Shown one piece after another: positions 3,472 through 59,993 of a DNA stretch of 64,000 nucleotides. The position numbers and the translations under genes are program-made. Location of the stretch: positions 62,152-126,151 of the forward strand of contig JBHLOC010000006.1 of the NCBI GenBank assembly GCA_048940925.1. The letters run 5' to 3'. A model generated the notes under the pieces. The model did no database searches. It was not told where the DNA came from and saw only the letters and a program-made list of their open reading frames with translations. Source of the stretch: Promethearchaeota archaeon (GTDB taxonomy: Archaea > Asgardarchaeota > Lokiarchaeia > Sigyniarchaeales > SOKP01). Each line of letters starts with the position of its first letter. Position 1 is the first letter of the stretch.

Positions 3472-4881
3472 TTGAGCGATTTAGAAGGATTAACTAGGAG
3501 GTTAATGGAAAAAGGTTCTACAAAGGATGAAATTATTGTACGGCTTGTTAATGAATATATGGATTTTAAAGACATTGATAAGGAGTCTGCAATCTCACTT
3601 TCTGAAGCAATTTATGAAGAATGTCGGAATAGCGACATAAAATTAGTGAGTGATCCCTTTATGAGATATTTATTAGATATTAATAAGGCAAATGTGACCA
3701 TTGGAAAACAAGGAGTGGGTTGTAGGGGATCTGGTGATTTTTTCGTTCATAAGCTCATTGCAAAATTATCTGAAACCGAGAAAAGGGCATATTTATCGCC
3801 AAGCTCCTTAGATGATGCTGGTGCTGTGAGAATAAGTGATATTGAAGGATTTAAAGCTGAAGATGAATTAATCATTGTATCCAAAATGGAAGGAATTCAT
3901 AGTCGCCTAAGTGACTTTCCATTCTTGTGTGGTTTTCACGTAAATTCGCGTAATAAGTTTGCGTGAAGCGTATCGAGAGCCGCACTAAGAGATCTCTATG
4001 TTAAAGGTGCAAAGCCTATTTCAATTATGATTGATACGCATCTAGGAGATGATGCAGATGTAGGGAAACTTTTTGATTTTATGGCAGGTGTTTCTGCAAT
4101 TTCAGAACTAGCGAAAGTTCCAATTACAGCAGGTTCAACACTTCGAATTGGAGGAGATATGGTTATTGGAAACCGCTTAGTTGGAGGAATTAGTGCTGTT
4201 GGAATATGTTCTCGAGTTTTAGCAAGGAAGAATATTAAAGTTGGCGATAAAATTTTAATGACAGAGGGATCGGGTGGAGGGACAATAACGACAACAGCAA
4301 TATATTCAGGTAATCATCATATAGTAAAGGAGACTATGAATATCAAATTTCTTGAAGCTTGTGAAATTATCTTAAATTCTGAATATCTTAATGAGATTCG
4401 TGCTATGTGCGATGTTACAAATGGTGGTCTTAGAGGAGATTTATATGAAATTAATTATGAAGCTAATTGTGGTGTTAATATTTTTGAAGAAAAAGTAAGA
4501 GCACTTGTAAATCCAAATGTTCTAAATATGCTAGAAAAGGTTGGAGTTGATTATCTAGGAGTTTCTTTGGATGCATTATTAATATATTGTTCTGACTCTA
4601 TATCTCAAGAAATTATAAATGATTTAAGAAGAAATAATATTAAGTGTGATGAAATAGGTTCTGTAGATGATTCAAATCAAGTTTATATTAGTTATCAAGG
4701 TAAGGAAAAAAAACAAATCCTTCCAAAATTCAGAGAATCTGCATATACTAAGATAAAACAAGAGATTGGAGAGAAAACCCCCAAGTCTCTTGAAGTAATG
4801 GAAAAAAGTGTTGAGAAAGCAGCTATGGAAGCGTTAGAGAAGCGTAATAAGATAATAGAATATATTTTGAAGCAAGAATAA
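3472..4881 (+). CDS. AIR synthase-related (PurM/HypE/SelD superfamily) protein, archaeal type; exons 3472-3943 and 3974-4881; 459 aa if spliced
   Basis: ORFs 3472-3966 and 4027-4881 share one frame, separated only by TGA 3964-3966. Superfamily motifs span the break: GVGCRGSGD, DDAG, EGIHSRLSDFPF, RAALRDLYVKGAKP, DVTNGGL. Confidence 0.88.
3944..3973 (+). other. Predicted 30-nt BHB (tRNA-type) intron in mRNA
   Basis: Outer helix 3927-3937/3975-3985; 4-bp central helix ACGU 3938-3941/GCGU 3968-3971; 3-nt bulges AAA 3942-3944 and AUC 3972-3974; inner helix 3945-3953/3959-3967. Contains the in-frame UGA. Confidence 0.88.
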
Positions 4882-4978
4882 AATCCAGATTTATTAAAAC
4901 TTACTTATTAGTCTTTACAGACAAATTATGAATTAAGATTATAAGTTTAAAAATTGTAATTTCCTACCTATATTCTAT

Positions 4979-5779
4979 ATGAATGAAACCAAATATTTTC
5001 TTTATAATCTTAATAATGTGGGAATTCAATGGTATTTAAGCAGTAATAAGAATATAGATGACAAAGCTTATTCTCCTCACTTACAACTTAGATGCTCAAA
5101 TTATGTAGATCCTTGGGAGGATAAATCTTCTCATTACCACTCAAAATCACAAGAAATCTTCATTTTGTTAGATGGAGAATTATGGATGATGCTTGATGGT
5201 GAACCATATACTATACTTAGAAATAATCTTTTACTTGTTCAACCGGGAGTTCCTCATATGATTATTGGGGGAAGAACAAAAATTCGACATTTTGTACTTA
5301 AAGTTCCACATCAAGAAGATAAATGGATTCAGCACAATGAAAATATTAATTATGATACTATAAAAGTTAAAATGGCAGAGAATCATTATAAAAGCGATAT
5401 TGATGGATTAAAAGGTTTTTTTGCAGATTTAAATGATAAAAAATTTCAGAATAATTGGTTACTTGGATATGGAGAAGCAATTTATAAAACTAAACACCTC
5501 TGTTTAGCTTATATGGATTTGAAGTGTGAACAAGTTTATAACGAAATGAATCATATTGAAACCTATCATTTTCATGAAGAGTCTACAGAATGGTATTTTA
5601 CGATAAAAGGACAACAGAAATTTTTAATAGATAATAAAGAGATATCTGTTGATCCAGGGTATCTATTAAGAATGCCTGAAAAAACACCTCATTTATTATT
5701 ATCCTATTCATACCCATTTGAAGGGATTACCTTAAGAACACCAGCAATACCTAACGATAAGATAATATTAAATAAATAA
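4979..5779 (+). CDS. Bicupin (two cupin domains)
   Basis: HYHSKSQE...PGVPH and HFHEESTE...PEKTPH metal-binding motifs. Confidence 0.85.
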   Translation: MNETKYFLYNLNNVGIQWYLSSNKNIDDKAYSPHLQLRCSNYVDPWEDKSSHYHSKSQEIFILLDGELWMMLDGEPYTILRNNLLLVQPGVPHMIIGGRTKIRHFVLKVPHQEDKWIQHNENINYDTIKVKMAENHYKSDIDGLKGFFADLNDKKFQNNWLLGYGEAIYKTKHLCLAYMDLKCEQVYNEMNHIETYHFHEESTEWYFTIKGQQKFLIDNKEISVDPGYLLRMPEKTPHLLLSYSYPFEGITLRTPAIPNDKIILNK

Positions 5780-5833
5780 GGCAAGTATTTGATTTAAGAG
5801 TCTGAAATTAAATCTAATTTTACGGTTTTATTT

Positions 5834-6667
5834 TTATTTTTTATTGTTTAAATCCAAAACTTCATTCATAGAACCTGATCTGAATCCCTCAACATCGATT
5901 GTTATATATGTAAATCCAATTTCTTTCAGTTGGTTTTTTATTAATTTTAAATTTTCTACATTTAGAATTTTAGGTAAATCTTCAGGCATAAATTCGATAC
6001 GAGCAAGAGTTTCTTCATGTAATCTTACTCTTAACTGATCCAAATCAAATTTACTTTTAAGAAATTTTTCAGATTCCCTAATCATATATAATTTCTTTTC
6101 ATTAATAATTTGACCATAGGGAATCCGAGATGAAAAGCAAGCCATTGACGGTTTTGATTGAACATCTAAATCAAAATATTTGCTAATTTCTCTTATTTCT
6201 TTCTTATTAAGATTGCAATCGATAAAAGGAGTAGAGATATTTAATTCTTTTAAAGCTTGCATACCAGGTCTGTAATCCGAAAGATCATCAATATTAGAGC
6301 CATCTAAAATTGTATCAAAATTTTTTAACTTCTTAATTTGAAGAATCTCATCATATAAACCAGTTTTACAAATATAACATCGATTTTGAGGGTTACACCT
6401 AAAATCCTCATTTCTTAAAGGATCCCTATCAATTATCATATGAGGGATGTTATAAATTTCAGCGAATTGATGTGCTTCTTCAATTTCTTCTTCAGGATAA
6501 AGGTTTGAACGCTCAGTCACTAGTAACGTCTCTTTAGCATACTTTTTTGAAAGGAAAGCTAATAGAGAGCTGTCTACACCTCCTGAGAAGGCAACTATTA
6601 CTTTTTTGCTGTCTAAAAAAGAAATTAAACTTGCTAACTTTTTTTCAAGAATATCAGATAAATCCAT
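5834..6667 (-). CDS. larE: LarE-family ATP-dependent sulfur transferase
   Basis: PP-loop AFSGGVDS, NRCYICK, DYRPG, ACFSSRIPYG, GFRSGSMN. Confidence 0.9.
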   Translation of the reverse strand: MDLSDILEKKLASLISFLDSKKVIVAFSGGVDSSLLAFLSKKYAKETLLVTERSNLYPEEEIEEAHQFAEIYNIPHMIIDRDPLRNEDFRCNPQNRCYICKTGLYDEILQIKKLKNFDTILDGSNIDDLSDYRPGMQALKELNISTPFIDCNLNKKEIREISKYFDLDVQSKPSMACFSSRIPYGQIINEKKLYMIRESEKFLKSKFDLDQLRVRLHEETLARIEFMPEDLPKILNVENLKLIKNQLKEIGFTYITIDVEGFRSGSMNEVLDLNNKK

Positions 6668-6975
6668 AACTATTTCACTAATAATTAAGAATAATATCTA
6701 ATATAATGAAAACTAAGTTTATAATTTAATATTTTTAAAAGATAAGGAAATTTTCAAAAAAAGATAAATAATTAGGTCACATTAAGAATTATCAATTATT
6801 ACTTCCCCTTATTTTAATAAATCATTATATATACAAAAAACAAATAGGCTTTCAAGTTCGGATTATATTAGTTCTGATTATAAACTAAAATTATTATGGC
6901 TTTATACTTAAGAAAAAAGTATTTCTCGACATTTTTGTAATAAATCTTTTATATTAAAAAATAATAAGAAATCAC

Positions 6976-7119
6976 ATGGAAAAAAAGAAAATAATTATAC
7001 TCAGTGTTGGTGCAATAATAATATTTGTTGTTCTTTTGCTTTTTGTTATTTTGCCCTTTGCGGGTGTTCCTGTTATACCTGGTACTGACTATGGTGGATG
7101 GCGCCCCCAGGGTAATTAG
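6976..7119 (+). CDS. 47-aa single-TM micro-protein (missed by ORF track)
   Basis: MEKKKIIILSVGAIIIFVVLLLFVILPFAGVPVIPGTDYGGWRPQGN*; a paralog about 290 nt downstream conserves the frame, with several synonymous changes. Confidence 0.65.
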   Translation: MEKKKIIILSVGAIIIFVVLLLFVILPFAGVPVIPGTDYGGWRPQGN

Positions 7120-7267
7120 GGGATAATGATGTTAGATGATAAAAGAACTTTTATATATTCAAGGAAATTAACCATCTAAAAATATTGAGCTTGAAATCAA
7201 GAAAAGATATTAATCTACATTTCAGTATTATCATTTTATAAGTATAAAAGAATTGGGACTATTATAA

Positions 7268-7423
7268 AAAAAAAAGAAAATAATAACAATTAGTGTTGCT
7301 GTAATAATCTTATTTGTTATTCTTTTACTCTTTGTTATTTTGCCCTTTGCGGGTGTTCCCGTTATACCTGGGACTGATTATGGTGAACCCACGAGAATTT
7401 CTAGATATCGTTGTGTTCCGTAA
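7268..7423 (+). pseudogene. Second copy of the micro-protein, lacking a start codon
   Basis: KKKKIITISVAVIILFVILLLFVILPFAGVPVIPGTDYGEPTRISRYRCVP*; the ATGG of copy 1 is replaced by an A10 run with in-frame TAA at 7265-7267. Confidence 0.55.
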
Positions 7424-7540
7424 TGTAAGCTAATAGATTGTAAAATTTAAGCACCTTAATACATAGCAAACTTATCCAAAGTTGCAATGCTTAGTTCAGA
7501 TTATCATTTAAGATAGTAATAAATAAAAAAAATTATTTTG

Positions 7541-8320
7541 CTACCATTTAAAGTTTGGATTAAAAAAGAGAAGTGTGTTTAACTTTTGCAACGTAATAAA
7601 TACTAAAACATAATACCAGCCAAGAGAAGAAAACATCATTATCCATTCAAGAAATTGTCTTGTTAAAGGTGCTGGAGCGATTAAAAACATTATAGTTGCT
7701 GTCGATGGACCTATTATCATAAAGTATCCAATAGTTTTAGGGAAAATTCTTCTTCTCAGTACTATTGCTAGTCCAGTGAAAAAAGCACCAAATGCGAACC
7801 CACCAAATGCTGAGGTAGAAAAATAATAATGGATATCGAAAGGGGAACGATCTAAACTAAAAACTCCTACAAAAAACATTCCTATAACTCCAAAAAAAAG
7901 ACAAACCACTCCAATATATCCAAATATTCTCCTAAACAAAACTGTGTAATGTTCTTTCTTTGAATTATCTAATCTAAGATTTTGATGTGAGCTATATAAT
8001 CGGCTTAAATTCAAAATTAAAGGGATTATGAAAATTGCTGACAAAATACATGTCACATCCAAGATAAAGGGAGCTGGTGTATATCTAGTTGATCCTAAAT
8101 CACTTATCCAATTATACCATAAGCTATACTCCATAGGTCCATAAATTTTAGCTATTATGAGTCCAAAGATTAATCCTGGCAAAAACGTCAGCAAGGTTAT
8201 ATAAATACTAATTTTAACTACTTTTGGCTCAGTAAGTTTATTATAAATATATTTACTATTTTTTTTCATTTTTAAAAAAATTGGATTGAAAAATTCCAAA
8301 TATAAATTTCTTTCCTTCAT
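7541..8320 (-). CDS. DUF998-like membrane protein
   Basis: NWISDLG motif, GVFS...IH, about five TMs, late EW motif; true start may be 8269. Confidence 0.75.
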   Translation of the reverse strand: MKERNLYLEFFNPIFLKMKKNSKYIYNKLTEPKVVKISIYITLLTFLPGLIFGLIIAKIYGPMEYSLWYNWISDLGSTRYTPAPFILDVTCILSAIFIIPLILNLSRLYSSHQNLRLDNSKKEHYTVLFRRIFGYIGVVCLFFGVIGMFFVGVFSLDRSPFDIHYYFSTSAFGGFAFGAFFTGLAIVLRRRIFPKTIGYFMIIGPSTATIMFLIAPAPLTRQFLEWIMMFSSLGWYYVLVFITLQKLNTLLFFNPNFKW

Positions 8321-8571
8321 TTTTTTTTTACCCTTATTATTATTTAATTATAAATTCACTCATATTAAATTTTCTCATATCTGAAATTTAATCCAGATAA
8401 CACTTAACCCAACTTCTTTAAGAATTTTATAAATTATATCTATTTATTTATTTTGATTTCAAAAAATTAAATTCTAAATAAATAAAAATAATAATTTCCT
8501 TCTATAATTCTTGAGGATAATTTATTGGAATCCGAATTATTTAATTTTTTTGATTAGATAAAAAAAGAAAA

Positions 8572-9210
8572 ATGACTAGAAGGGTAAAAGAAATTTTAAC
8601 AAAGTGGCCTTTATCGTGTATAATTGGATTTTTACTTGTTATCTTATCTTGGGCTTCAATGTCGATTGCAATCATATTAGCTCCGCGTACTTTCAATCCC
8701 TTTAAAAATTATATGAGTAGTTTAGGTAACTCTTCATTTAATCCTGATGGAGCTTTTTTTTATAATGTCTCAGTAATAGTTTCTGGATTTTTGTTTACAC
8801 TTTTTTTTCTAGGATTATCTATGTGGTATACTGATATAATAATAGATAAAAATATACTAAGAATGACTCAAATGTTTGGTTGCTTATTAGCTTTTACAAT
8901 AATATTAACAGGAATTTTTTCTGAAGATTTTAAGCCACAGCATATATTCTGGTCAATTATAGCGGGGATTTTAGGTTTTGTTGTTAATGTTCTTTTAGCA
9001 ATATTTTTAATTAGACAAAAAGAAGCTATAAGAAAAATATCTTATTCTATATTGATATTAATAGGATTTTATGTGATATTTTTATTTATATTAAGTCCTA
9101 CTCACGTTTTAACTGAATGGATTGTAAGAACTTTGGGAGATATAAATTTGATCTTAATTACATACAATCTTAAGAAAATATATTCAATTAGAATATACTT
9201 ATTTTCTTAA
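8572..9210 (+). CDS. DUF998-like membrane protein
   Basis: NYMSSLG, GIFSEDFKPQH, EW motif, about five TMs. Confidence 0.75.
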   Translation: MTRRVKEILTKWPLSCIIGFLLVILSWASMSIAIILAPRTFNPFKNYMSSLGNSSFNPDGAFFYNVSVIVSGFLFTLFFLGLSMWYTDIIIDKNILRMTQMFGCLLAFTIILTGIFSEDFKPQHIFWSIIAGILGFVVNVLLAIFLIRQKEAIRKISYSILILIGFYVIFLFILSPTHVLTEWIVRTLGDINLILITYNLKKIYSIRIYLFS

Positions 9211-9240
9211 AATCCCTTTTTTCAAAATTAGACGTTTTTA

Positions 9241-9906
9241 TTAAATGATTGATTCTAATTTTAAATGTCTATCCTTTCCTGATAGACGGTATAATTTAGT
9301 AGACATTATAAATATCCAAGAAAGAGGAACAAAAAGCCCTAATCGTTGTATAAGGCCATTGACTAAAGAAATTTCAACCAAAAGTGCAATTGGAGTATAT
9401 ATAATTAAAAAGATCCCAATTTGCAAAAAGAAGAGCCACCAATAGTTTTGCCAATTATAGTCTTTCCATAATGGATATAAAGAAAGAAGAATTGCTGAAG
9501 GCATGGCAATCGAAGGAAATTTAATTAGTGAATTATGACTTATACCTGTAAATGTTATGTTTCTACAACCTGCATCACATGGAAACATTGAAAGTGCAAA
9601 AATACATATACCAGATAGTATAAAGAGAACCATACTTATTGTTATTAATGGATGCTTTTTAACACCTAGATAAAGACCAAATCCAAAAAAAATTAAATAA
9701 AGACCGAATACATTAAAACCAAAAATGTCCATAATCAAATTGTACGGTGCTTCTGAAGTGGCTAGCTCACTGATAAATTGACTCATAGGATTATACCCAG
9801 GATAAAGAGATCCTAAGACTGTAAATACTATTAAATTAATTACAGGACCGACGATTCCAAAAATAGCTGATGTTCTCTGAAGTCGATTCATATGAATTAT
9901 ATCCAT
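9241..9906 (-). CDS. DUF998 membrane protein
   Basis: YPGYNPMSQFISELA, FPCD...H, GLIQR. Confidence 0.8.
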   Translation of the reverse strand: MDIIHMNRLQRTSAIFGIVGPVINLIVFTVLGSLYPGYNPMSQFISELATSEAPYNLIMDIFGFNVFGLYLIFFGFGLYLGVKKHPLITISMVLFILSGICIFALSMFPCDAGCRNITFTGISHNSLIKFPSIAMPSAILLSLYPLWKDYNWQNYWWLFFLQIGIFLIIYTPIALLVEISLVNGLIQRLGLFVPLSWIFIMSTKLYRLSGKDRHLKLESII

Positions 9907-10202
9907 ATCCCCTAACCTATTAACTTAAGATAGCATTTTAAAGAATAAATATTTTCCTAATTCATTAAGTTATAAGAAAAAGTGATATTTTAATTGATTT
10001 TGGAAAAGGAAAACTTTATATACATAAAAAATTGTTTTAGTTCGCAACTTTTTTCTGCTTTCTGTTTCTTTTTTTGAAAAAGATACTGCATAACAAATAC
10101 AAAGATTTAAATACTATATGTGATATAGTATCCATAGAACAATATATATTAAATACAACATAATTATAAAATTTAAAAAAAAGTGGAAAAAGTTGAAAAA
10201 AT

Positions 10203-10745
10203 ATGATAAGACGAGTCAAAGAATTAGATTCAAATGCTTTGATAGCATCGAAAGATTTCAGAGACTATGTCGAAAAACAAGAAACCGAAATCAATCGAGG
10301 TATTTCTTCCCTATGTATACTTTCTATACTTATACAAGCAGGTGAGGAGGGTTTGTATGGCTATAAAATTTTGAAAGATTTAACGGAACAAACTAATGAA
10401 ATGTTAGTTATTGAAGAAGGTACACTTTATCCAATATTAAGAAAATTAGAAGATGATGCTATAATAACAGCTAGAAAAGAGGATTCAGGAAGACGGAGAA
10501 AATTTTACAGTGTTACAGAATACGGAAAAAAAATTTTTAATCATCTAGCAGGATTCTATAGCAAATTAACAGAAGCTATTGCACCACTGTTTGATGTTAA
10601 AGTAAATTTAAAGTCAGAAAAATATTTGTTTTGTCCTATGTGTGCTAACAAAATTGAGCTTACTAATTTAGAGCTCCGTTTTTGTGACGTTTGTGGACAT
10701 AATATTGAAAAAGAATTAAAAGAAAGAGGTTTAAGACATGAGTGA
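10203..10745 (+). CDS. PadR-family regulator with C-terminal zinc ribbon
   Basis: YGYKILK...EGTLYPILRKLE...RRKFYSVTEYG; CPMC...CDVC. Confidence 0.9.
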   Translation: MIRRVKELDSNALIASKDFRDYVEKQETEINRGISSLCILSILIQAGEEGLYGYKILKDLTEQTNEMLVIEEGTLYPILRKLEDDAIITARKEDSGRRRKFYSVTEYGKKIFNHLAGFYSKLTEAIAPLFDVKVNLKSEKYLFCPMCANKIELTNLELRFCDVCGHNIEKELKERGLRHE

Positions 10746-11793
10746 AAAAGAAATGAGGAATATAGTAAAAGAATATTTAAAGGAAGTTAAAAACAAACTC
10801 CCTGATTGGTTAAAAGAGAAAAAAGAGCATAAAGATTTATTAGCTGAACTAGAAGAACACATTTGGAATAAGGCAGAAGAGTTATCAGAAACAGATCAAC
10901 CAACAGTCGAATCAGTTCATATAGCAGTTACTCATATGGGAACTCCAGAGAGCATTGCTAAAGAATATAAACGCCGAGGAACACCAAAAGTTTATATCAC
11001 TGAAGAGATGTGGCCAATATATTTGAGGGTTTTAGGAATTGTATTTGCTGTGATCATCGGGATTACCATATTAACACAGGTGATAGACTTCATTTTTGGA
11101 AACCTTAATGTTGGTGAATTGATTATAAATATCATTCAAGGAATACAGATTGGAGGTCTTGGAGCCTTTGTTATAATCACTATAATATTTGTAGTACTTT
11201 CTATGGAAGGTTACTTTCCTGAAGATTTTAAATCTAAAAAAACTCGTGAGAAGGAAAAACAACAACTTGAAATAGCACGAAAAAAAGGTCTTCCAATTTC
11301 AGTAATAAAGGAAAAACCACTAAAGCCATTTATTAAACCTGCAGGTGAGATTATAGGAGGAGCATTCGGGATTACATTTGGAATATTATTTCTTATCCAA
11401 CCAATTCCTGCCATCACAAGCTTGATTGCCCCAGAATTTCTATTATATCTTCAATTTGCGGGAGTATTCATTTTAATTGAAGGAATATTAGATTTATCAC
11501 GAGGATTAATCGGAAATAGACAAATGATTACTCATCAAATAATTCATGTGATAACCATTGCTATAAAACTTGCATCTATATCCGTAGTGATCTTGGTGAT
11601 GAATCGACCAGAGATATTCCCAATAATAATTGTTGAAGAACCAGGGGCCGGGTTAGTAAATATAGGAATCGCACCAGAATATTACAATATTTTTAGAGGA
11701 ATAGCGGGTTTGGTTATTGCATTAGTAGCACTTAGTACAATTGAAGATTTTTATAAGATTTATAAGGCTGAAGGATACAAATCTAAATATTAA
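10738..11793 (+). CDS. HAAS-domain membrane protein (PadR partner)
   Basis: YLKEVK...ELEEHI...MGTPESIAKEY N-terminus followed by about six TMs; overlaps padR by 8 nt. Confidence 0.75.
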   Translation: MSEKEMRNIVKEYLKEVKNKLPDWLKEKKEHKDLLAELEEHIWNKAEELSETDQPTVESVHIAVTHMGTPESIAKEYKRRGTPKVYITEEMWPIYLRVLGIVFAVIIGITILTQVIDFIFGNLNVGELIINIIQGIQIGGLGAFVIITIIFVVLSMEGYFPEDFKSKKTREKEKQQLEIARKKGLPISVIKEKPLKPFIKPAGEIIGGAFGITFGILFLIQPIPAITSLIAPEFLLYLQFAGVFILIEGILDLSRGLIGNRQMITHQIIHVITIAIKLASISVVILVMNRPEIFPIIIVEEPGAGLVNIGIAPEYYNIFRGIAGLVIALVALSTIEDFYKIYKAEGYKSKY

Positions 11794-11797
11794 AATC

Positions 11798-11823
11798 TTT
11801 TTATTTTTCTTTTTTTTTTTTTT
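11798..11823 (+). terminator. Oligo-T archaeal terminator candidate
   Basis: T-rich tract, including T14 at 11810-11823, just after the stop at 11793. Confidence 0.5.
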
Positions 11824-11990
11824 AACTATCTAATCAAGTAATTTACTGAATCCTATATAAATTAAAAATAGTTAAACCTACTATATTTTTGGTATGATAA
11901 TAGCAATAATGAGTCAGTATAATTAATAAAATTAAAAAAAAAATAAGGATTTATCCTATTTCTTGAAAAAATGGACTATAATTAAGTGTA

Positions 11991-48472: not shown

Positions 48473-48485
48473 GAGGGCAAAAAAA

Positions 48486-49990: not shown

Positions 49991-50223
49991 AATAAAAGCC
50001 TTGTTAATATTTTTCTTATATCAATTTTAATTTGTTATTCTGAAATATTCAAACTTCAGTGAATAATTACTTAAATATACCATAACTTTAATATTTTATT
50101 AAGGGATTTTAGCTCATTCTCTTAGAACTAAAGATTTAATATAACAATGATGATTTTAATTATTAATATATCTAATCAATTACATTTATTATATAAAAAT
50201 TTAAATTTATATTGGTTTAAATC

Positions 50224-50712
50224 ATGGCTTCTTATCGATTAATATTGGGAATAATAATTGGTATTGTTTTAAGTTTTTTTAGTGTATTTTTCTTTAATAT
50301 GGAGAATCTGATTAATCAAATCAAAACTAATGCCAATTCTGATCTATTGAAAGCAATTGCTTTATTAGTTGGTGCGAATTTTAAGTTTGATATTATTGCA
50401 TTTTTCTCGGGAACTTTAACAGTTACAGGATTTTTCGCAGCGCAACTTTTAGCTTGGCTCTTCATTGGATATGTCAGTGGTACAATTGCAAAAGGTTTAA
50501 AAAGAGGTATTATATCAAGCGTATTAGTAGTAGTAGTAGTTTTATTAATTTGGATTATTTTAAGTATAATTTCTGGGGTAGATTTAATGGCTTTATTTCA
50601 AGGTAATCAGTTAACTGAAACATTAGGTGGGATATTTAGTGGCTTTTTAGGAGCATTTATAGGAGGACTAATCGGCGGATCAGTAAGTGGACCATATGAA
50701 GAGTTTTATTAA
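50224..50712 (+). CDS. Hypothetical 4-TM glycine-rich membrane protein
   Basis: Hydrophobic helices with GxxxG motifs. Confidence 0.7.
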   Translation: MASYRLILGIIIGIVLSFFSVFFFNMENLINQIKTNANSDLLKAIALLVGANFKFDIIAFFSGTLTVTGFFAAQLLAWLFIGYVSGTIAKGLKRGIISSVLVVVVVLLIWIILSIISGVDLMALFQGNQLTETLGGIFSGFLGAFIGGLIGGSVSGPYEEFY

Positions 50713-50816
50713 TCAGTTTATTGTTTATCTTTTTCCTTTCTTTTAGAAATACTAATTAGGTTTTAATCCATCTTGTCTTAAAAAAATTTAATATTTGTTA
50801 ATAATATAAGTTATTA

Positions 50817-51356
50817 ATGGGGAATAAAAAAGAAGAAATTCTACCTGATCGGGAATTTGCACTTGATCTACTAAGAAATTTAAAAATTCAACATTCAGTT
50901 AGGCGTCATTCTGAAAAAGTTGCAGATAAGGCTTTAGACATAGCAAAAAAAATAACAAAGGCTAAAGTTGATATGAATTTAATTGAAATTGGAGCGTTAT
51001 TACATGACATAGGAAGAACTACAACTCATGGGTTTAAACATGCGTTAATTGGAGGTAAGATATTAAGAGGGAGAGGTTTTTCAGATAAACTCGCAAAAAT
51101 CTGTGAAAGGCATATTTTAGGAGGATTGGATAAAGGAGACGCTAAGAGGTTTGGATTACCTGAAAAAGATTACTTACCGATAACATTGGAAGAGAAAATT
51201 ATATGTTTAGCCGATAAACACATGGCAGGAACTAGAGAAGTAACAATAAATGAAAGATTTAAAAGATGGTTTCAAAAATATGGTAGAAGTAAAATTCTAA
51301 TAAAATCAAAAAGAAGAATCGAAGCGATTCAAAAAGAAATAGAAAGGTTAATGTAA
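50817..51356 (+). CDS. HD-domain (HDIG) phosphohydrolase
   Basis: HS...LLHDIGR, ERH, LEEKIICLADK. Confidence 0.9.
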   Translation: MGNKKEEILPDREFALDLLRNLKIQHSVRRHSEKVADKALDIAKKITKAKVDMNLIEIGALLHDIGRTTTHGFKHALIGGKILRGRGFSDKLAKICERHILGGLDKGDAKRFGLPEKDYLPITLEEKIICLADKHMAGTREVTINERFKRWFQKYGRSKILIKSKRRIEAIQKEIERLM

Positions 51357-51361
51357 TAAAA

Positions 51362-51862
51362 TTACTTCCTTAATTTCCTTTTTAACTGGTTTAAAATTCC
51401 TCCTCCTTCCAGAATATCTGTTAAAAAAACAGGTAACTTTTCAAATTCAATCTCTAGATTCTTGCTTTTATTAAAAATTATTCCTTTGTCAAGTGATATC
51501 TCTAACTTATTTTCTTTCTAAAATTGATTATCTTCCCATTCTACCTGAATACCTGGAATACCTAAATTAATCAGATTTCTAAAATAAATTCGTGCAAAAG
51601 ATTTAGCAATAATAGCTTTTATACCTAAAGTCTTAACCACATTAACAGCTTCTTCCCGAGAACTGCCTGATCCAAAATTTTCTCCTGCTACAATAATATT
51701 ACCCTTATTAATATTGTGTACAAATTGTTGATCAATGTATTTCAGAGTATTATTAGCCATCTCATTAGGATCTCTTATTGTTAAAACATCACTAGGAACA
51801 ATGTCATCAGTAGTAATATCATCTCCCAAAATATAAGTGAAACCTTCAATTGTATCAACCAT
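51362..51862 (-). pseudogene. leuD: LeuD/HacB small subunit with internal TAG
   Basis: DDITTD, NFGSGSSRE, AKSFARIYFRN; homology continues in frame past TAG 51518-51520 (...LPVFLTDILEGGGILN) to TAA at 51362. Confidence 0.85.
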
Positions 51863-53123
51863 TTATAAAACCTCTCTTGGATCAGTAATTTTACCCCTTA
51901 TAGCAGAAGCCGCAATAGTAGCAGGTGTTGCTAAGTAGACCTTGGACCTCGGTGAACCCATTCTTCCTTCAAAATTTCGATTAGAACTACTTATACAAAT
52001 CTCATCTGGTCCTAATACTCCCATATGTCCCCCAAAACAAGGACCACAAGTGGAATGTCCAAATATTGCTCCCGCATTGATAAAGATTTCAATTAATCCC
52101 TCATGAAATGCTGCTTTATATATCTCTTTAGAGGCAGGAATGATTATCATTCTCATTTTAGAACTTATCTTCTTGCCTTTTAATATTTTGGCAGCAATCC
52201 TAAGATCTTCCATTCTTACATTTGTACAACTTCCAATAAATGCTTGATCAAATTCAATTCCTTCTACTTCTTCAATATAAGCTAAATTGTCAGGAGTAGA
52301 TGGTTTTGCGACAACAGGAGTAATCTCCGATAAATTATAATCAAAAGATTTTTCGTACAGGGCATCTTTATCAGGAAATACAAACTCATATGTTTCATTA
52401 GTCCTATTATGTAGCCAATCATTTACTTTTTCATCAGGTAAAAAAATTCCAAATTTAGCACCCGCTTCTACAACCATATTTGAAATTGTCATACGTCCAT
52501 CAATTGATAATGATTTTGCACCATCTCCATGAAATTCTAAAGATTTATAAATAGCACCCTTGGTTGATATATCACCTATTAGTTTTAGAATAAAATCTTT
52601 TGGCATTACACCTTTATTTAATTTACCAGAAAGATTTATTTCAAATGATTCTGGAACCTTAAACCATAACTTTCCGGTAGTAAAAACAACAGAAACATTA
52701 GTAGCTCCTATTCCTATAGATAAGCTATTAAATGCGCCATAAGTAATTGTATGGCTATCAGAACCTACTATTAACATACCTGGTCGTGCAAATCCCATCT
52801 CTGGTAAGACCTGGTGACAAATACCTTTATCCATACCAATATCGTGAATAAAATTGTACTTTCTCGCAAACTTTCTACAATCCTGGTGCATTTCAACTGC
52901 TGAAATTGTAGGTGCGGGTATCCAATGATCTAGAATGAAAAAGAATTTTTTTAGGATCCCAAATATAATCAATCCTTAATTTTTCATATTCTTTATGTAT
53001 TCGTCCTCCTAATTGTTCATGAACCATTATTAACTCAATATTACAGTCTATAAATTGTCCGGGGTAAAGTTCTTTAAGATTTGAATGATCTAACAGAATT
53101 TTTTCAGCAATTGTATAATTTAA
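51863..53123 (-). pseudogene. leuC: LeuC/HacA large subunit, frameshifted and start-less
   Basis: N-terminus (NYTIAEKIL...PGQFI...VHE...WDPKK) is in another frame with a 1-nt shift near 52940-52952. The start position reads TTA, and GSCTNVR replaces GSCTNGR. Confidence 0.85.
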
Positions 53124-54409
53124 TTATCCTCACATATTAATTGTTGATTTTGGCATAGTATTTTATAATCATTATCAATCATTAATATAACTTTTTTAAT
53201 AATTAGGCATGCTTGTAGTAATATTTTTGGATCAACTTTATCTGGAGTATCTTGTATAGTATGAGTATGTTTTCCAGCAACTCTCGTAGTGATATCAACA
53301 GAATTATATCCTCTTAAATGAAATGGAACAGAATCTGTATGAGCACCTGTAGATAGATGAAATCCTGTTATATTCAAATTTTGATCTTCCGAGGCTTTTT
53401 CTAAATATTGACTGAGTAAAGGAGCTATCTTTTTACGAGGAAAAACTCCATAGGATTGCAAATATTGTAACTTATTGTTTTTATCATTCGCACATGAAAC
53501 CATATCTAAATTAATCTGAAATACTCTTCCTTTAAGGAATTGTTTTTCGTAAGTATTGACAAAGATTCTTGATCCCATAGTTCCTAATTCTTCAGCAGAA
53601 AACTGACAAAACCAGATATTGAAGTTCTCTAATGGATTCTCTTTAAAGTATTTGCTCAATTCAAATGTAATTACCATACCCGATGCATTATCTAAAGCAC
53701 CTGGTGATTTATTATGAGTGTTTAAAAACATTAAAAATATGTTTGAAATTGAAATTAAGATTGTAAATAACCAAAGACCTATTCTCAGGATTAATAAATT
53801 TAGTTTTAAAACAGTATAAGTACGAATAAAGAACGCAATAAGAAATCCTCCTAAAAAAATTCCTCCATAAAGCCAAACACGGTAGAGTATTACTCTCCAA
53901 TATGTTTTAAAGGTTTGTGACTTTGAATCTAAGTGTGCGGAAATAATAATGTTTCCAGCTTTTTCAGTTGGAATTCCAGTAGCGTTTACTCTTACAAATA
54001 CATTTGTAGCCGAAATAGTTTTTCCATAGTATTCCCCCCAAAATCCAGATTCTTCAGGATGTTTTAATCCTTTAATAATTAAAATAATTAATATTATCCC
54101 TGTACCAATTATAAATGTTGTAATAAATAACTGAATATATACAAACATCAAAATAAATAAAGAAAAAGTTAAGTTGATAACCATAATTAACTTAATTAAG
54201 GTCGTAGAATAAAAATCAGAGAATTCAAAGGGTTGTTTTTGGATTTGTGAATCATCAAATCCATTTTTCTTAAATAAATCCACAGCAAGCTCTACAGCTT
54301 TTTGTTCACCTTCAGTTCCAGCTAATCTGGGAAAACTAAATAGTTTTACTAAATCAAATAATTGATCAGCATTAAAGGAAAAATTTTCAGTAGATTTACT
54401 ATTCTTCAA
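53120..54409 (-). CDS. Membrane-embedded M28 metallopeptidase
   Basis: SAHLDSK, GALDNASG, SAEELG, HTD; paralog of 29173-30360. Confidence 0.85.
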   Translation of the reverse strand: MKNSKSTENFSFNADQLFDLVKLFSFPRLAGTEGEQKAVELAVDLFKKNGFDDSQIQKQPFEFSDFYSTTLIKLIMVINLTFSLFILMFVYIQLFITTFIIGTGIILIILIIKGLKHPEESGFWGEYYGKTISATNVFVRVNATGIPTEKAGNIIISAHLDSKSQTFKTYWRVILYRVWLYGGIFLGGFLIAFFIRTYTVLKLNLLILRIGLWLFTILISISNIFLMFLNTHNKSPGALDNASGMVITFELSKYFKENPLENFNIWFCQFSAEELGTMGSRIFVNTYEKQFLKGRVFQINLDMVSCANDKNNKLQYLQSYGVFPRKKIAPLLSQYLEKASEDQNLNITGFHLSTGAHTDSVPFHLRGYNSVDITTRVAGKHTHTIQDTPDKVDPKILLQACLIIKKVILMIDNDYKILCQNQQLICEDN

Positions 54410-54490
54410 CTTTTCTCAAAAAAATTTTATAGATTCAGAATAAATTATCCCAATTTCTAAAATGCCAATTATAATTTAGATTTTATTGTT

Positions 54491-55108
54491 TTAACTTATA
54501 ACATAACCCAATTTGCTGAGTTTATCCAATATAATTTTTTGAATCTTTTCTTGGACTAATTCTATTATATTATCCGAACTAATAATATTATATTTATTTT
54601 GTTTAGCCCGAGAGTAATAAAGATCTCTCACTTGATCTAAAAAGTTAGTATCTTCAAATTTTTCTAAATCTTTATCTTCCTTTCTTGCTAATGCTATTTT
54701 TGGATCAATATCTAAAATTATCGTTATGTCAGGTAAACCTACAAATTTATTAATTTCTTTAACCCAATCAACTGAAATTTCATCAGATTGTACCGATTGA
54801 TATACTATTGAAGATTCCAGATATCGATCAGAAATGACAATATATCCCTCTTCAAGTTTATATTGTATTTCATTTTTATAATGGAGATCTCTATCAGCCG
54901 CGAATAGTAAAGCATCCGTAGTAGGAGGCACTTTTTTATCTTTTAAATATTTTCTCACCAATTTCCCTATATCGCTTTTAGATGGTTCCATTGTTAAATG
55001 AACTTTTAGACCTTTACTTTCTAAAAATCCTTTAAGGAGTTGACTATGAGTACTTGTACCTGATCCATCAATACCTTCTAATGCAATAAACAATGATTTC
55101 TGCGTCAA
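54491..55108 (-). CDS. tmk: Thymidylate kinase
   Basis: EGIDGSGTST, LLFAADR, SDRY..SS..YQ. Confidence 0.95.
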   Translation of the reverse strand: MTQKSLFIALEGIDGSGTSTHSQLLKGFLESKGLKVHLTMEPSKSDIGKLVRKYLKDKKVPPTTDALLFAADRDLHYKNEIQYKLEEGYIVISDRYLESSIVYQSVQSDEISVDWVKEINKFVGLPDITIILDIDPKIALARKEDKDLEKFEDTNFLDQVRDLYYSRAKQNKYNIISSDNIIELVQEKIQKIILDKLSKLGYVIS

Positions 55109-55298
55109 ATTAACTCAAAACTAATAATATTCAAAATCAAAATTCTATAGATTATAAAACAATAAGGACATATTGATTTTATTTTTAATGAACTTATCTT
55201 ATTAATTTTTTAACAAGTTGAAGTATAAAATTTTTTCATCTAATAGAATAAAAAAGGTTTACCAGAAAAATTAAAATGATTGTGTAATCTTATTTAAA

Positions 55299-55694
55299 TT
55301 GAGAGAGATGGATAAAAACAAGCAATTTGCATATTGCGATAATTGTGAGAGAGAGATCGAAAATCCAAAAAGAAAAGCTTTTGAAGGCATGTATCTTAAT
55401 ATATGGATTCTGTGTATTTTAGCTTCATTAGGCTTTGCTCTCATTCCTTTTTTAATTTATCGTTATATTTATTTAAAGAAGAATGTTTGTCCATTTTGCC
55501 ACAATCAGTTAGAATTTTACAGTACCCGTGAAGAAATTCCTGAACCAAAAGCCCAAATAGCCCGAATCCTTAATAAAATAGAAGAAGAAAAAAGAGAAAA
55601 AGAAGAAAATAAAGATTATTGTCCTTATTGCAAACAAGAAATAACTAAAAACGTAGAAATTTGCCCAAATTGTGGTGTCACTCTTAAAGAATAA
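55299..55694 (+). CDS. LITAF-like (CxxC-hydrophobic-CxxC) protein with C-terminal zinc ribbon
   Basis: CDNC...hydrophobic segment...CPFC; CPYC...CPNC. Confidence 0.7.
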   Translation: MREMDKNKQFAYCDNCEREIENPKRKAFEGMYLNIWILCILASLGFALIPFLIYRYIYLKKNVCPFCHNQLEFYSTREEIPEPKAQIARILNKIEEEKREKEENKDYCPYCKQEITKNVEICPNCGVTLKE

Positions 55695-55768
55695 AAATAT
55701 ATATGAATATAATCATTCTTTATTTTAAATATAACAGTAAAATAATTATTATAACATAAGGTTTAGAA

Positions 55769-56149
55769 ATGCCAACAGTTAATCCTACCGGCTTTTGTCC
55801 TAGGTGTAATCAATATGTGTTGTTAACTCGTGAAAGAATTGACACTTGCCTCGCAATAATTTTGCTAATTTTTACTGCTGGAATTGGTTTGATAATTTAT
55901 TTGATTTGGTATTATTCTAAGGCTGAAGACACCTGTGTACATTGTGGGACTAAAATCACAGTCTCTCAACCGCAGAGTCAATTTGCATATCAATCCCAAC
56001 CCCAAAATCTGCAAGGACCTTATTCTGCACAAGCTCCCATTGAGGAAACTGAGAAAGTAACAGGAGATATAACTAATTATTGCGCGTTATGCGGTGAAAA
56101 ATTAGAAACTGGAGTAAAATATTGTCCAAATTGCGGTGGCAAAGTTTAA
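55769..56149 (+). CDS. LITAF-like protein with C-terminal zinc ribbon
   Basis: CPRC...LAIILLIFTAGIGLIIYLIW...CVHC; CALC...CPNC. Confidence 0.72.
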   Translation: MPTVNPTGFCPRCNQYVLLTRERIDTCLAIILLIFTAGIGLIIYLIWYYSKAEDTCVHCGTKITVSQPQSQFAYQSQPQNLQGPYSAQAPIEETEKVTGDITNYCALCGEKLETGVKYCPNCGGKV

Positions 56150-56314
56150 AACAATAATTTTTTTTATTTATAACTTCAATCTTTTTTAAATTTTTGAATT
56201 TGGTATTCTTTCTCCAATTAAAAATTGGTCTAAAGATCATTTTAGTATCTCTTTGTCTATTTCTTAATTAAAGAAAAGAAATAGATTTAAAAAAGAAAAA
56301 TTGGAGGTAAAAAA

Positions 56315-56698
56315 ATGTCTATGTCTGTAATGTATTGTCCTCATTGTAAGATGAACGTTTTTACAAAAAAAGAGGATTTCAGAATCGGTTTAGCAATACT
56401 TTTAGCAATATTTACAGGTGGATTAGGTTTATTAATTTATGTTGCAATTTATTTGGACAAACCTCAGAATCGTTGTACAAATTGTAATCATGTTTGTGAA
56501 CCACATCAAATGATTACGACTCAGTCGAGTTCAAATTATCAATTAATTAGTACTTCTACTCAGATTCAAAATCAGAAACCTGTTGTAAAAACACATATGA
56601 ATGAGGAAAAGGTTAAATTCTGTTATAATTGTGGTGTGGAATTAGATCTGAGAGAAGGCGCCAAGTTTTGTCCTTTATGTGGAAGTAATACTGAATAA
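56315..56698 (+). CDS. LITAF-like protein with C-terminal zinc ribbon
   Basis: CPHC...LAILLAIFTGGLGLLIYVAI...CTNC; CYNC...CPLC; GGAGG upstream. Confidence 0.72.
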   Translation: MSMSVMYCPHCKMNVFTKKEDFRIGLAILLAIFTGGLGLLIYVAIYLDKPQNRCTNCNHVCEPHQMITTQSSSNYQLISTSTQIQNQKPVVKTHMNEEKVKFCYNCGVELDLREGAKFCPLCGSNTE

Positions 56699-56719
56699 AT
56701 TTAATTATTTTTATTCTTT

Positions 56720-57622
56720 TTATTTTTTTAGGATTTTCATAAATTCATAGAAGTAGTTATATGAATTCTCAAAGTGGATATCTTCTTTGGAGTATTCTAA
56801 ATCCTGAGAAAAAATCTTGGAAAATTTCTTTAAATCTTTTGTTTTAATTATGTTTTTATACTCTTTAATTAAATTTTCAAATAATTCTAAGATGGTATAA
56901 AATTCTTGATTTTCTATTTGAATTTCTCCAAACATTTCCATTTCTCTTTGGATAATGCTTTCTGCGAAGACTTTTTGGAGTAAGAATGTGGTGCCAGTAT
57001 ATTGTGTTAATTCGGATAAAGATTCATTAGTTCTTCTTAATAAATTCAAAAATAGGATGTTGAACATATGCGGTACTCCTAGTGTTAAAGCAATACGTTT
57101 ATCATGTACCTCTAATGTAGTTTCAGTTATGAATAATCCATCTGATTTAAATAAATCTAAGAGTTCTGCCACGATGTTGTTATAATGTTTTGTACCTCCA
57201 ACTCTCAAAACAATAAGAGTGTAGTTTTTAAAATTTGTAATACCAGGACCAAACATAGGATGAAGAGATAAACAATTTATAGGGAATTTGCTTTGAGCTA
57301 TCTTTAACATTCTGAATGTTTCTTGTTTTATTGATGTTATATCAAAAATCAATGAATTTTCTTTCATGAATGGAGCAACATTTTCAACCATTTTAGGTGT
57401 AGAGTGAATTGGAATTGAAATCATTACGATATCGGCATTGCTTACACTTTTTTTAAGATCCACTTCATAATTTACTTCTAAGTCTTCAGCAACTAGTCTT
57501 AGTTTTTTTGCATTTCGGGCATGTATTGTTACATTAAAACCATGTTCTTTAAAAAATCTTGAAAATACGCTGCCCATTCCTCCTGAACCGCCTATTATTG
57601 TTAAATTTTTCCCTAACATCAT
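56720..57622 (-). CDS. tyrA: Prephenate dehydrogenase
   Basis: IIGGSGGMG, DITSIK, HPMFGP, HD. Confidence 0.9.
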   Translation of the reverse strand: MMLGKNLTIIGGSGGMGSVFSRFFKEHGFNVTIHARNAKKLRLVAEDLEVNYEVDLKKSVSNADIVMISIPIHSTPKMVENVAPFMKENSLIFDITSIKQETFRMLKIAQSKFPINCLSLHPMFGPGITNFKNYTLIVLRVGGTKHYNNIVAELLDLFKSDGLFITETTLEVHDKRIALTLGVPHMFNILFLNLLRRTNESLSELTQYTGTTFLLQKVFAESIIQREMEMFGEIQIENQEFYTILELFENLIKEYKNIIKTKDLKKFSKIFSQDLEYSKEDIHFENSYNYFYEFMKILKK

Positions 57623-58494
57623 TATAACCCTAAATATTCAACTACTTTATTTCTCATAATTATTTTATTTGGTTTTTTATCTGTCCACCATTCAAATGCT
57701 AATGCTCCTTGGTTTACTAACATATCTAAACCCCCTAATATTTTACAACCTCTTTCTTTTGCATTCTTTATTAATTGAGTCTCTAGAGGATTGTATATTA
57801 CATCAAAAACAGTCAAATTTTCATGTAAAATCTCTAAAGGGATTGGTGATTCGTTTATTTTTGGATACATACCGATAGGTGTCGTATTGATTAAGATATC
57901 AGCATTTTTAATTTCTTCTTCCAAAATTTTATTACTAAATTTTTTTCCTTCCAAATCCAGTTCATAAGATTTTTTTAGATCAGATACAATTTTTAGAGCT
58001 TTTTTTTCAGTTCTATTTACAATAACTATTTTGTTCACATCCTCTGCTAATGTGAATGCAAGTGCTCTAGCGGCCCCACCAGCCCCTACTATCAAGACAA
58101 TTTTATCAGAAAAATCGCATTCTGCGTCAATTAAAGCCCTTTTAGCCCCTATTGCATCTGTATTTTTTGCTTTCAGGAAACCATCATCGTTCTTTATTGT
58201 ATTGACTGCCCCGATTTTTTTTGCTAAAGGATCTATTTCGTCTAAATATTTCATTATAGTCTGTTTGTAAGGAAGAGTGACATTTATACCCTTAATATTT
58301 AAAGCCTTGAAACCTCTTACTGCATCTCTTAATCTTTCTGGAAGAATATTAAATGAAACATATATATAGTTAAGATTTAAATCTTTTATGGCAGCATTAT
58401 GCATAATTGGACTCATAGAATGTTCTATTGGATGTCCAATAACACAAAGGATCTGTGTACGAGCTGTAATAGAATTTATTGCCGACACCTTCAA
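57622..58494 (-). CDS. aroE: Shikimate dehydrogenase
   Basis: HSMSPIMHN, NVTLPYK, GAVNT, NTD, GAGGAA. Confidence 0.95.
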   Translation of the reverse strand: MKVSAINSITARTQILCVIGHPIEHSMSPIMHNAAIKDLNLNYIYVSFNILPERLRDAVRGFKALNIKGINVTLPYKQTIMKYLDEIDPLAKKIGAVNTIKNDDGFLKAKNTDAIGAKRALIDAECDFSDKIVLIVGAGGAARALAFTLAEDVNKIVIVNRTEKKALKIVSDLKKSYELDLEGKKFSNKILEEEIKNADILINTTPIGMYPKINESPIPLEILHENLTVFDVIYNPLETQLIKNAKERGCKILGGLDMLVNQGALAFEWWTDKKPNKIIMRNKVVEYLGL

Positions 58495-58592
58495 AAATTA
58501 CCTAATTAAATTAAAAATTTATAATATCTTTTAAGATTATAAACAATTTATAATTATATTACCAATTTATTGAATGACAGAAGAGAAAAAAC

Positions 58593-59153
58593 ATGAATAA
58601 AATACTTCTTAGTCCAAAAGTCTCCACTTTTCCTATGCCTGCTGCAGTTATCTCAGTAGGATTTGATGAAAAAGCAAATTTAATAACTTTAGCTTATGTT
58701 GGTAAAGTGTGTTTAAACCCCCCAATTATAGCTATCTCTATACAACCTAAACGTCATTCATACCAATTAATTGAAAAATATAGAGAATTTGTAATTAATT
58801 ATCCTACAGTAGAACAATTAAAAGAATTGGATTTTTGTGGAACGAGATCAGGAAGAGATGTTAATAAGTGGACGGAGTTAAATCTAACAAGGGAAGAAGC
58901 TTCAATAGTAAAAGTTCCAATGATAAAGGAGTTTCCATGGAATATGGAATGCAAAGTAATAAAAAGATTTGAGCTAGGTTCACACGTATGTTATTTTGGC
59001 GAAGTTCTTGCTGTACATTCTGATCCATATTATACCAGAAATGGTAATTTAGATCCTGAAAAGATTAATTTATTTGCGTATTTATCTGGTTTTTATATCG
59101 AATTGAAGAAGACTATTTTAGGAACTCATGGCTTTTCATTAGAGGTGTCATAG
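58593..59153 (+). CDS. Flavin reductase family protein
   Basis: EFVINYP, CGTRSGR, ECKV, GSH. Confidence 0.88.
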   Translation: MNKILLSPKVSTFPMPAAVISVGFDEKANLITLAYVGKVCLNPPIIAISIQPKRHSYQLIEKYREFVINYPTVEQLKELDFCGTRSGRDVNKWTELNLTREEASIVKVPMIKEFPWNMECKVIKRFELGSHVCYFGEVLAVHSDPYYTRNGNLDPEKINLFAYLSGFYIELKKTILGTHGFSLEVS

Positions 59154-59200
59154 GATAAATTATTGCTAAATACCATCATTAAAGCAAAATTGTTGTTGAA

Positions 59201-59731
59201 ATGAAGAAGGACTCTATTGCGCTCATAGGTTTTATGGCTACAGGAAAAACTACTATTGGAAAAGCAATAGTAAAAAAGCTTGGAGATGATTATAAGTTTA
59301 TTGAAACCGACGAGATTATTGTTAAAGAAACAGGTAAATCAATTCCAAGAATTTTTGAGAAGGAAGGAGAACAAAAATTTAGAGAATATGAAGTTTTAGC
59401 ATGTAAAAAAGCATCTAAGTTAAAAAAAACTGTAATTTCATGTGGGGGTGGAGTTGTTTTAAATAAAATTAATATTGATAATTTGAAAAAGAATTGTATA
59501 TTAGTCCTTTTGACAGCGACACCAGAAGAAATATTTAATAGAATAATGATGAATGGAAAAGAGACTAGACCTGTTATCAATAAACAAGATCCTAAATTAG
59601 AAATAGAAAGAGTTTTAAATTTTCGAAATCCTTTTTATGAAGCATCAGCAGATATTATTATTGATACCACCAATAAGAAAATAAAAGATATTGTGAAAGA
59701 GATTATAATAAAAACCCTAGCAAAAACCTAA
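59201..59731 (+). CDS. aroK: Shikimate kinase, bacterial P-loop type
   Basis: GFMATGKT, GEQKFREYE, SCGGG, RP, R.PFY. Confidence 0.92.
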   Translation: MKKDSIALIGFMATGKTTIGKAIVKKLGDDYKFIETDEIIVKETGKSIPRIFEKEGEQKFREYEVLACKKASKLKKTVISCGGGVVLNKINIDNLKKNCILVLLTATPEEIFNRIMMNGKETRPVINKQDPKLEIERVLNFRNPFYEASADIIIDTTNKKIKDIVKEIIIKTLAKT

Positions 59732-59793
59732 ATTTATATTTATAGAACCCACTAAATATGTAAAAAACTCATTTTAGAGTTAAGGGGATTAAA

Positions 59794-59993
59794 TTGACTG
59801 AGTATAAAAGGGTTAAATGTCCGAAGTGTGGTAATGAGAACCCACGTAAGCTTCATGAGGAGTCCGATAAAAGTAAGGTACTTTACTATAGTATAAGTAA
59901 TGCTATTTAAGCATACTGCTGAAGCAAGGTACTCCAGTATATGCTAAGAATGTGAAGTGTGGCGGGTGTGGTAATATTTTTAAAAAGGAATAA
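59794..59993 (+). CDS. 56-aa zinc-ribbon protein; exons 59794-59894 and 59924-59993 (not in ORF track)
   Basis: Predicted spliced product MTEYKRVKCPKCGNENPRKLHEESDKSKVLYYSMQGTPVYAKNVKCGGCGNIFKKE; AAGGGGA upstream of the TTG; T-rich tract after the stop. Confidence 0.78.
59895..59923 (+). other. Predicted 29-nt relaxed-BHB intron in mRNA
   Basis: Central helix UAGU 59889-59892/GCUG 59918-59921; bulges AUA 59893-59895 and AAG 59922-59924; inner hairpin AGU-A-AUGCU/AGCAU-ACU; outer helix GUACUUU/AAGGUAC beyond an internal loop. Contains in-frame UAA. Confidence 0.75.

Follow-up and report, generated by a model that had tools for sequence, protein, structure and literature searches.

Short bulge-helix-bulge inserts, very probably introns, in protein-coding genes across the genome of a Lokiarchaeia archaeon

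Two unrelated genes in a 64-kb stretch of DNA from a Promethearchaeota archaeon of the Lokiarchaeia (the window), one encoding an AIR-synthase-like and the other a zinc-ribbon protein, are each interrupted by about 30 nt with a stop codon in the frame of the first exon, which raises the question of how intact proteins can be made from them. The window corresponds to C30:62152-126151 of the genome under study, G000, a bin of 4.82 Mb with 29.6% G+C and a contamination figure of 8.4%; C-numbers denote contigs of G000, L-numbers loci, and G002, G004, G006, G017, G018, G022, G024, and G041 genomes of relatives. It is highly likely that these and further inserts of the genome are introns bearing bulge-helix-bulge (BHB) motifs and are spliced from mRNAs by the host, and that they are tolerated passengers spread by recombination rather than a regulatory switch. 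The two loci are composed as follows (window positions):

3472-3943, + strand: exon 1 of the AIR-synthase-like gene, with a TTG start, grouping with G024 and not with G018
3944-3973, + strand: intron 1, 30 nt, with an in-frame TGA (3964-3966), a 9-bp stem and a 5-nt loop (3954-3958)
3931-3981, + strand: full BHB motif of intron 1, found in the minimum-energy and the centroid structure
3931-3937/3975-3981 (outer helix), 3938-3941/3968-3971 (central helix), 3942-3944 and 3972-3974 (bulges), + strand: parts of this motif
3974-4881, + strand: exon 2 of the AIR-synthase-like gene, native and under purifying selection (dN/dS 0.11 versus G024)
59794-59894, + strand: exon 1 of the small zinc-ribbon gene, with a TTG start and the first CxxC
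59895-59923, + strand: intron 2, 29 nt and frameshifting, with a TAA in the exon-1 frame (59908-59910) and a 5-nt loop (59905-59909)
59878-59932, + strand: relaxed BHB motif of intron 2, with 93.8% of cells paired over 23 sequences
59889-59892/59918-59921 (central helix), 59893-59895 and 59922-59924 (bulges), 59878-59884/59926-59932 (displaced outer helix), + strand: parts of this motif
59924-59993, + strand: exon 2 of the zinc-ribbon gene, with the second CxxC; the spliced product has 56 aa

Both introns are real, with the lengths, 5-nt loops and stop codons that an earlier note, made from the window alone, had described, and as stated there they share no sequence (global alignment score -6). 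The region of intron 1 folds into the canonical strict h-B-H-B-h' motif as its minimum-energy structure (-19.4 kcal/mol, z -4.8, none of 200 shuffles as good). Intron 1 interrupts a Thr codon (A|CG), and its excision yields GFHV-T-RAAL, which is the sequence of intron-less orthologs, in a gene of 459 aa once spliced (3472-4881). Among 29 scorable genomes only G024 also has an insert, of 29 nt and at the same base; in the 27 intron-less orthologs the residue at the junction is Thr in 24, Ala in three and Ser in none. The motif of intron 2 is relaxed, with a central helix of 4/4 pairs and a displaced outer helix (z -2.3). Here a Met codon is interrupted (AT|G), and excision leads to YYS-M-QGTP, as in intron-less orthologs. 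Intron 2 is present in 22 and absent from 20 of 42 scorable related loci, and over 23 copies eight pairs have changed on both sides, with 93.8% of cells paired versus 24-51% in slid controls; one of the two-sided changes falls in the exon-exon helix, at synonymous positions. Furthermore, exon 2 of the intron carriers is under purifying selection (pN 0.08, pS 0.76). In relatives the zinc-ribbon gene also has a second 30-nt insert in L069 (10155-10184), one at another site in L103 (10123-10152), and probably one in L049.

More such introns occur elsewhere in the genome, as the earlier note had expected. In a census of 1616 orthologs of G006, in which the BHB motif was not used and 2.4 of the 3.34 Mb of G006 were compared, G000 has 14 frame-breaking inserts of at least 14 nt, 13 of them of 29-31 nt and one of 65 nt, the latter located in RpoA' and resolving into 30 + 35 nt. 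Four inserts of 28-30 nt are G006's own, so that lengths cluster at 28-31 nt. Relaxed thresholds and paralogs gave three further introns, and a descriptor scan gave those of CobO and Elp3, which were confirmed against relatives with contiguous profile positions 2-135 and 136-522; the 53-nt intron of gyrB was checked by its motif only. Altogether, G000 contains 21 distinct introns in 20 genes, or 22 sites if a duplicated acetoacetate-CoA ligase gene (AacS) is included. We estimate a genome-wide total of about 20-45 introns, the upper bound being an extrapolation of what was found in the 28% for which comparators were available, on the assumption of an equal intron load in poorly conserved genes. 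Introns common to G000 and G006 are under-counted, because a search for them without an intron-less comparator did not exceed its decoys, and the last filter removed the positive control. The expectation of further introns had been drawn from their density in the window. It holds for their existence, but two in 64 kb exceeds the genome average, so that a total judged by this density is too high (P 0.04-0.19 for at least two introns in a 64-kb window, given 22-60 sites genome-wide). Of the genome scan proposed in that context, the descriptor part alone does not rise above decoys, and homology is needed: a loose descriptor with an open reading frame (ORF)-gain test performed like its L+/-1 decoys, and a learned descriptor combined with coding potential exceeded decoys at the strictest setting only (16 versus 6-8), the CobO and Elp3 introns being among its output. 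A 35-nt hit on C35 was excluded as a tRNA-Cys intron read antisense.

The inserts found in this way are set apart by their motif, which is present in 20 of 22 frame-breaking inserts of 27-33 nt versus three of 84 in-frame ones. The strict form occurs in 13 of 18 introns versus 0.2% of random coding sites (1.2% with the best of five positions). The central helix has all four pairs in 17 of 23 introns and at least three in all 23, compared with 1.8% and 15% after moving these introns to random sites. All but one of the 23 introns have A as their penultimate base. At the tested introns, cuts placed behind base 2 of both bulges give back the gene without its interruption. For introns 1 and 2 and those of aIF2-gamma, FwdA, and MCM, exact restoration needs a split codon, which is unattainable by skipping at codon boundaries. 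No near copy of any intron was found elsewhere by blastn, except for the AacS duplicate. Many insertion sites lie in catalytic motifs, and the preference for conserved sites is weak (mean percentile 0.64, P 0.06). In about half of the introns, a pyrimidine-rich stretch (TCC or CC) on the apical loop's 3' side lies opposite AAG or AGG. The mean pairwise similarity of introns is above a base-shuffle null, which the hairpin shape alone may explain.

The hosts are the genes of RpoA', aIF2-gamma, EF-2, GyrB, and Elp3, furthermore those of an E1-like enzyme, two Ras-family GTPases, AMP phosphorylase, FwdA, thiolase, methylmalonyl-CoA mutase, acetoacetate-CoA ligase, and CobO, and finally those of an alpha-mannosidase-like hydrolase, a metallo-beta-lactamase-fold protein, a hexapeptide-repeat protein, a DUF6125 protein, and the two window genes. 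The bin contains one gene each for RpoA' and aIF2-gamma, and for EF-2 there is only a 34% paralog. The RpoA' gene contains two introns:

C62:7922-7990, - strand: two RpoA' introns (30 + 35 nt) around a 4-nt micro-exon, in the GHFGHIEL motif

The second central helix is complete only once the first intron has been removed, and the two are probably spliced in order. Elsewhere the RpoA' sites are occupied singly, the first in G017 and the second in G041 and G022. In two relatives (L263 and L264, 1742-1826) an 85-nt insert at the second site resembles nested introns.

Both enzymes that splicing would require, whose typing the earlier note had proposed, are encoded in G000 and are of the expected type. 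There are two EndA genes. The product of one, alpha, has Aeropyrum 3P1Z_B as its closest match, and both the catalytic His (H133) and Lys44 of the loop align; in the product of the other, Phe replaces the catalytic Tyr and the His is missing, as in a structural beta subunit. RtcB is intact. The EndA of G000 is thus, as far as its sequence tells, of the (alpha-beta)2 type with a broad-specificity loop. Broad-specificity EndA with the loop lysine (K44 of Aeropyrum) cuts relaxed motifs (PMC5829648). Splicing of these mRNAs is very probable, with cleavage and ligation in the cell as predicted steps. The BHB motif, being half exon and half intron, would be cut by (alpha-beta)2 EndA behind base 2 of both bulges, with the exons then joined by RtcB, presumably as a routine step needed for essential proteins. 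The introns themselves would be tolerated passengers that enter by recombination from other genomes, at intron 1 together with the first exon.

How an intron arrives can be followed at the AIR-synthase-like gene. The closest genome to G000 is G018 (92% identity in RpoA'), with G024 at 83%. Exon 1, however, is 86% identical on the nucleotide level to G024 and 69% to G018, and a tree of exon 1 supports the grouping of G000, G024, and G002 with 100/99. Just past the junction the identity to G018 jumps to 90-95%, and that to G024 drops to 71-81% after about 60 nt, which places a recombination crossover about 60 nt 3' of intron 1; the exon 2 sequences of the two carriers, G000 and G024, differ with the dN/dS of 0.11 given above. 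Upstream of the window, at the syntenic position, lies a decayed native exon 1 with a stop (C30:61194-61535, equal to L324:543-884), which groups with G018. It is displaced by a gene block of about 4 kb that ends in the foreign exon 1 and intron 1 and in which no nuclease was recognised:

1-3471, strand not assigned: part of the block of about 4 kb that separates the native exon-1 remnant from the incoming exon 1 and that G006, G024, and G002 do not have in this place

Because the gene is mosaic and the decayed native exon lies upstream, exon 1 and intron 1 came in jointly by recombination, and intron 1 was acquired horizontally along with an exon 1 that took the place of the native one. The inserted block also encodes a 298-aa protein (window 1721-2617, - strand) that has no Pfam family and gives weak Atlas leads to PH-domain and zinc-ribbon proteins.

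Several other introns lie beside free-standing LAGLIDADG nuclease genes. Of five such genes in G000, three have an intron no more than 1.1 kb away (two of four loci if only independent ones are counted; P about 7e-4), namely on C70, C17, and C57, and one locus each was found in G002, G004, and G024. Of five nuclease loci taken from G024 and G002, two have an intron within 250 nt, in pfkA and as the same hydrolase intron as in G000, and a LAGLIDADG nuclease is near the CobO intron of G004. The AacS paralogs (C17:4134-7279 and C57:75448-78599) are 75-80% alike, yet they share an identical intron and an adjacent nuclease that is about 90% identical. This pair and the crossover at intron 1 point to co-conversion of flanking sequence. 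In several cases, an intron may have entered beside a nuclease whose target the insert probably disrupts, where the association is observed and cleavage is presumed. One of the AacS copies could be bin contamination. In G024 a 31-nt BHB intron (L314:1954-1984) interrupts the Asp codon of GGDCPG in a phosphofructokinase gene, directly 3' of a LAGLIDADG gene. A free-standing LAGLIDADG gene of G002 (L321:890-990) adjoins a tRNA-like sequence and not an interrupted protein gene. A LAGLIDADG domain, probably that of an intein, is also encoded in a long ORF (C54:3-3254, + strand), whose end is separated by about 100 nt from the intron in the metallo-beta-lactamase-fold gene on the opposite strand.

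Some results weigh against the passenger model or against parts of it. Concerning the motif, six of the 23 introns have only 3/4 central pairs and the outer helix is weak in many, and the predicted cut sites represent the best motif among 1-7 near-equal alignments, for which the random-site nulls allow the best of five. Concerning spread, no nuclease lies inside either window intron, as the earlier note had said of homing endonucleases, or beside it, a LAGLIDADG profile found none in the related loci of intron 2, and next to the free-standing nucleases on C26 and C73 no intron was detected.

The stop codons deserve separate consideration. All 17 introns of 3n length contain a stop in frame, compared with 15 of 34 in the other frames, an excess with P about 6e-4 by shuffling (13 introns found without the break filter), and the census gave no convincing open-frame BHB insert. 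Introns of 3n length without a stop seem to be selected against. The reason is probably that from a message which retains a stop-less intron the whole protein would be made, its catalytic motif enlarged by ten residues, and selection against such a damaged enzyme is the simplest reading of the excess, which leaves room for a regulatory use of the stop-bearing introns.

Such a use had been the more far-reaching proposal of the earlier note, namely that splicing makes expression of a gene set conditional, with intron retention as the gate, as for XBP1 with IRE1 and RtcB. Every intron breaks the frame, so that the gene would be switched off if its intron were retained, intron 2 has persisted in many lineages and shows covariation, and a role as negative regulator was proposed for the cbf5 intron (PMC2738675). 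However, the hosts are single-copy essential genes and unrelated enzymes with no common pathway, and each intron occupies its own patchy subset (intron 1 in 2/29 genomes, RpoA' in 4/27 and aIF2-gamma in 3/27 of the same genus, Elp3 in 1/18). The intron sets of G000 and G006 are mostly different, and intron 1 is imported. Moreover, EndA is required for tRNA maturation, which needs this same enzyme. In XBP1 and HAC1, IRE1 cuts at two separate stem-loops under stress control, and RtcB is the ligase of XBP1. The introns of G000 lack two separate IRE1 stem-loops; both cuts fall into one BHB motif across a single hairpin. The parallel to XBP1 and HAC1 thus stands for the ligase family and for a short frame-breaking intron, and it fails otherwise, as G000 has a BHB motif with a housekeeping EndA and no sign of a regulator. 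We consider regulated splicing of a gene set unlikely, and an Asgard ancestor of XBP1-type regulation, to which the note had pointed, is not shown.

Translational bypass, by which the insert would stay in the mRNA and ribosomes would hop over it, is known from T4 gene 60 and the mitochondrial byps. Short hairpin inserts with a stop, mostly of 30 nt, would suit it, and take-off and landing codons match in three of 16 cases (intron 1, AacS, and the metallo-beta-lactamase-fold gene). They are missing in the other 13, and five introns need the split codon. At intron 1 hopping would give Ser, the residue found in no ortholog where Thr prevails, and neither the exon-intron pairing nor the conserved bulge A would be necessary for it, which makes bypass very improbable. 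Read-through of the stop, for instance by selenocysteine at the TGA of intron 1, for which the tRNA-Sec call in the genome and the 3n length with a single TGA could speak, is scarcely credible, since ten extra residues would remain in an invariant motif, the G024 copy of 29 nt shifts the frame, and in other introns the stop is TAA or TAG or the frame is shifted. The idea that small insertions have turned the genes into pseudogenes, or that the inserts are assembly errors of a contaminated bin, is already refuted by the conservation data and retains practically no probability, as the same inserts, with compensatory changes, recur in assemblies that are independent of each other, purifying selection acts on downstream exons, the sole RpoA' and aIF2-gamma genes are hit, and the lengths cluster at 28-31 nt. 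Group I or II introns, which have a ribozyme core, were rejected on account of the size of 29-30 nt and of the missing Rfam match in the window.

In G000, an intron type that is already known occurs as a variant that is real and genome-wide. A BHB intron of the cbf5 pre-mRNA is known from Desulfurococcales and Sulfolobales (Watanabe 2002; Yokobori 2009, PMC2738675), and it is the one confirmed case in a coding sequence among the papers searched, others being only predicted (PMC2738675; PMC7714728). Like there, the G000 introns are short, ORF-less and located in coding sequence, with a BHB-like motif that is often relaxed and a cut between bulge bases 2 and 3, a hetero-oligomeric EndA, insertion in a catalytic motif, and patchy loss. 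Unlike the single gene cbf5, about 20 genes are concerned here, including essential information-processing genes and a two-intron gene with a 4-nt micro-exon, and there are recent horizontal gains. Splicing of cbf5 was demonstrated experimentally, whereas that of the G000 introns is predicted from sequence. In Haloferax, HVO_1309 has a 46-nt intron processed by EndA, with cbf5 named as the sole other mRNA example (PMC7714728); this is likewise a BHB intron in an mRNA, but a single case in the 5' untranslated region. For Asgard tRNA genes, repeated independent gains at BHB sites, an (alpha-beta)2 EndA, and an arrival route that was left open were described in a preprint (bioRxiv 10.64898/2026.10.13.758758), which is confined to tRNA genes and does not contain the word mRNA, whereas the G000 introns lie in protein genes. 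The nuclease gene that some loci have beside an ORF-less intron and the co-conversion of flanks are like collaborative homing in phages, where a free-standing endonuclease acts with an ORF-less intron (reviewed in PMC3984707). The differences are that a host-spliced BHB element of about 30 nt in a cellular genome takes the place of a group I ribozyme, and that no nuclease is found at the window introns. Furthermore, the stop bias of the 3n introns resembles that of eukaryotic 3n introns. BHB introns in the coding sequences of Asgard archaea were not described in the open full-text literature that we searched, subscription journals being largely outside this search.

Archaeal protein genes are taken as almost intron-free. 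Dozens of short introns in essential Asgard genes would mean that some messages have to be spliced before translation, and without a spliceosome, already in close prokaryotic relatives of the eukaryotes, and recombination with the first exon together with nuclease cassettes offers a testable model for the arrival of ORF-less introns. It is somewhat likely that in this genus the tRNA machinery splices mRNAs routinely and genome-wide, including the ordered removal of the two RpoA' introns, that the introns spread via homing-nuclease cassettes and were selected to carry stops, and that a few old ones, for example intron 2, may have been co-opted for regulation. That the introns are ancestral in Asgard archaea is not shown, because in other families of the order the orthologs found of the five genes considered (both window genes, RpoA', aIF2-gamma, and Elp3) are uninterrupted in the searched stretch. 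As the earlier note had anticipated, interrupted genes would be annotated as split genes, and the markers RpoA', EF-2, and uL11 are truncated in annotations of the genus, which affects completeness estimates and phylogenomics. The uL11 gene is intact in G000; in relatives it contains inserts of 35-37 nt at two sites and of 28 nt at a third (L069:15779-15814, L095:18813-18848, L086, L087, L107, and L081:17528-17555). Finally, aIF2-gamma has in this genus an N-terminal helix-hairpin-helix extension of about 100 aa (L175:8860-10398 of G006; C68 of G000).

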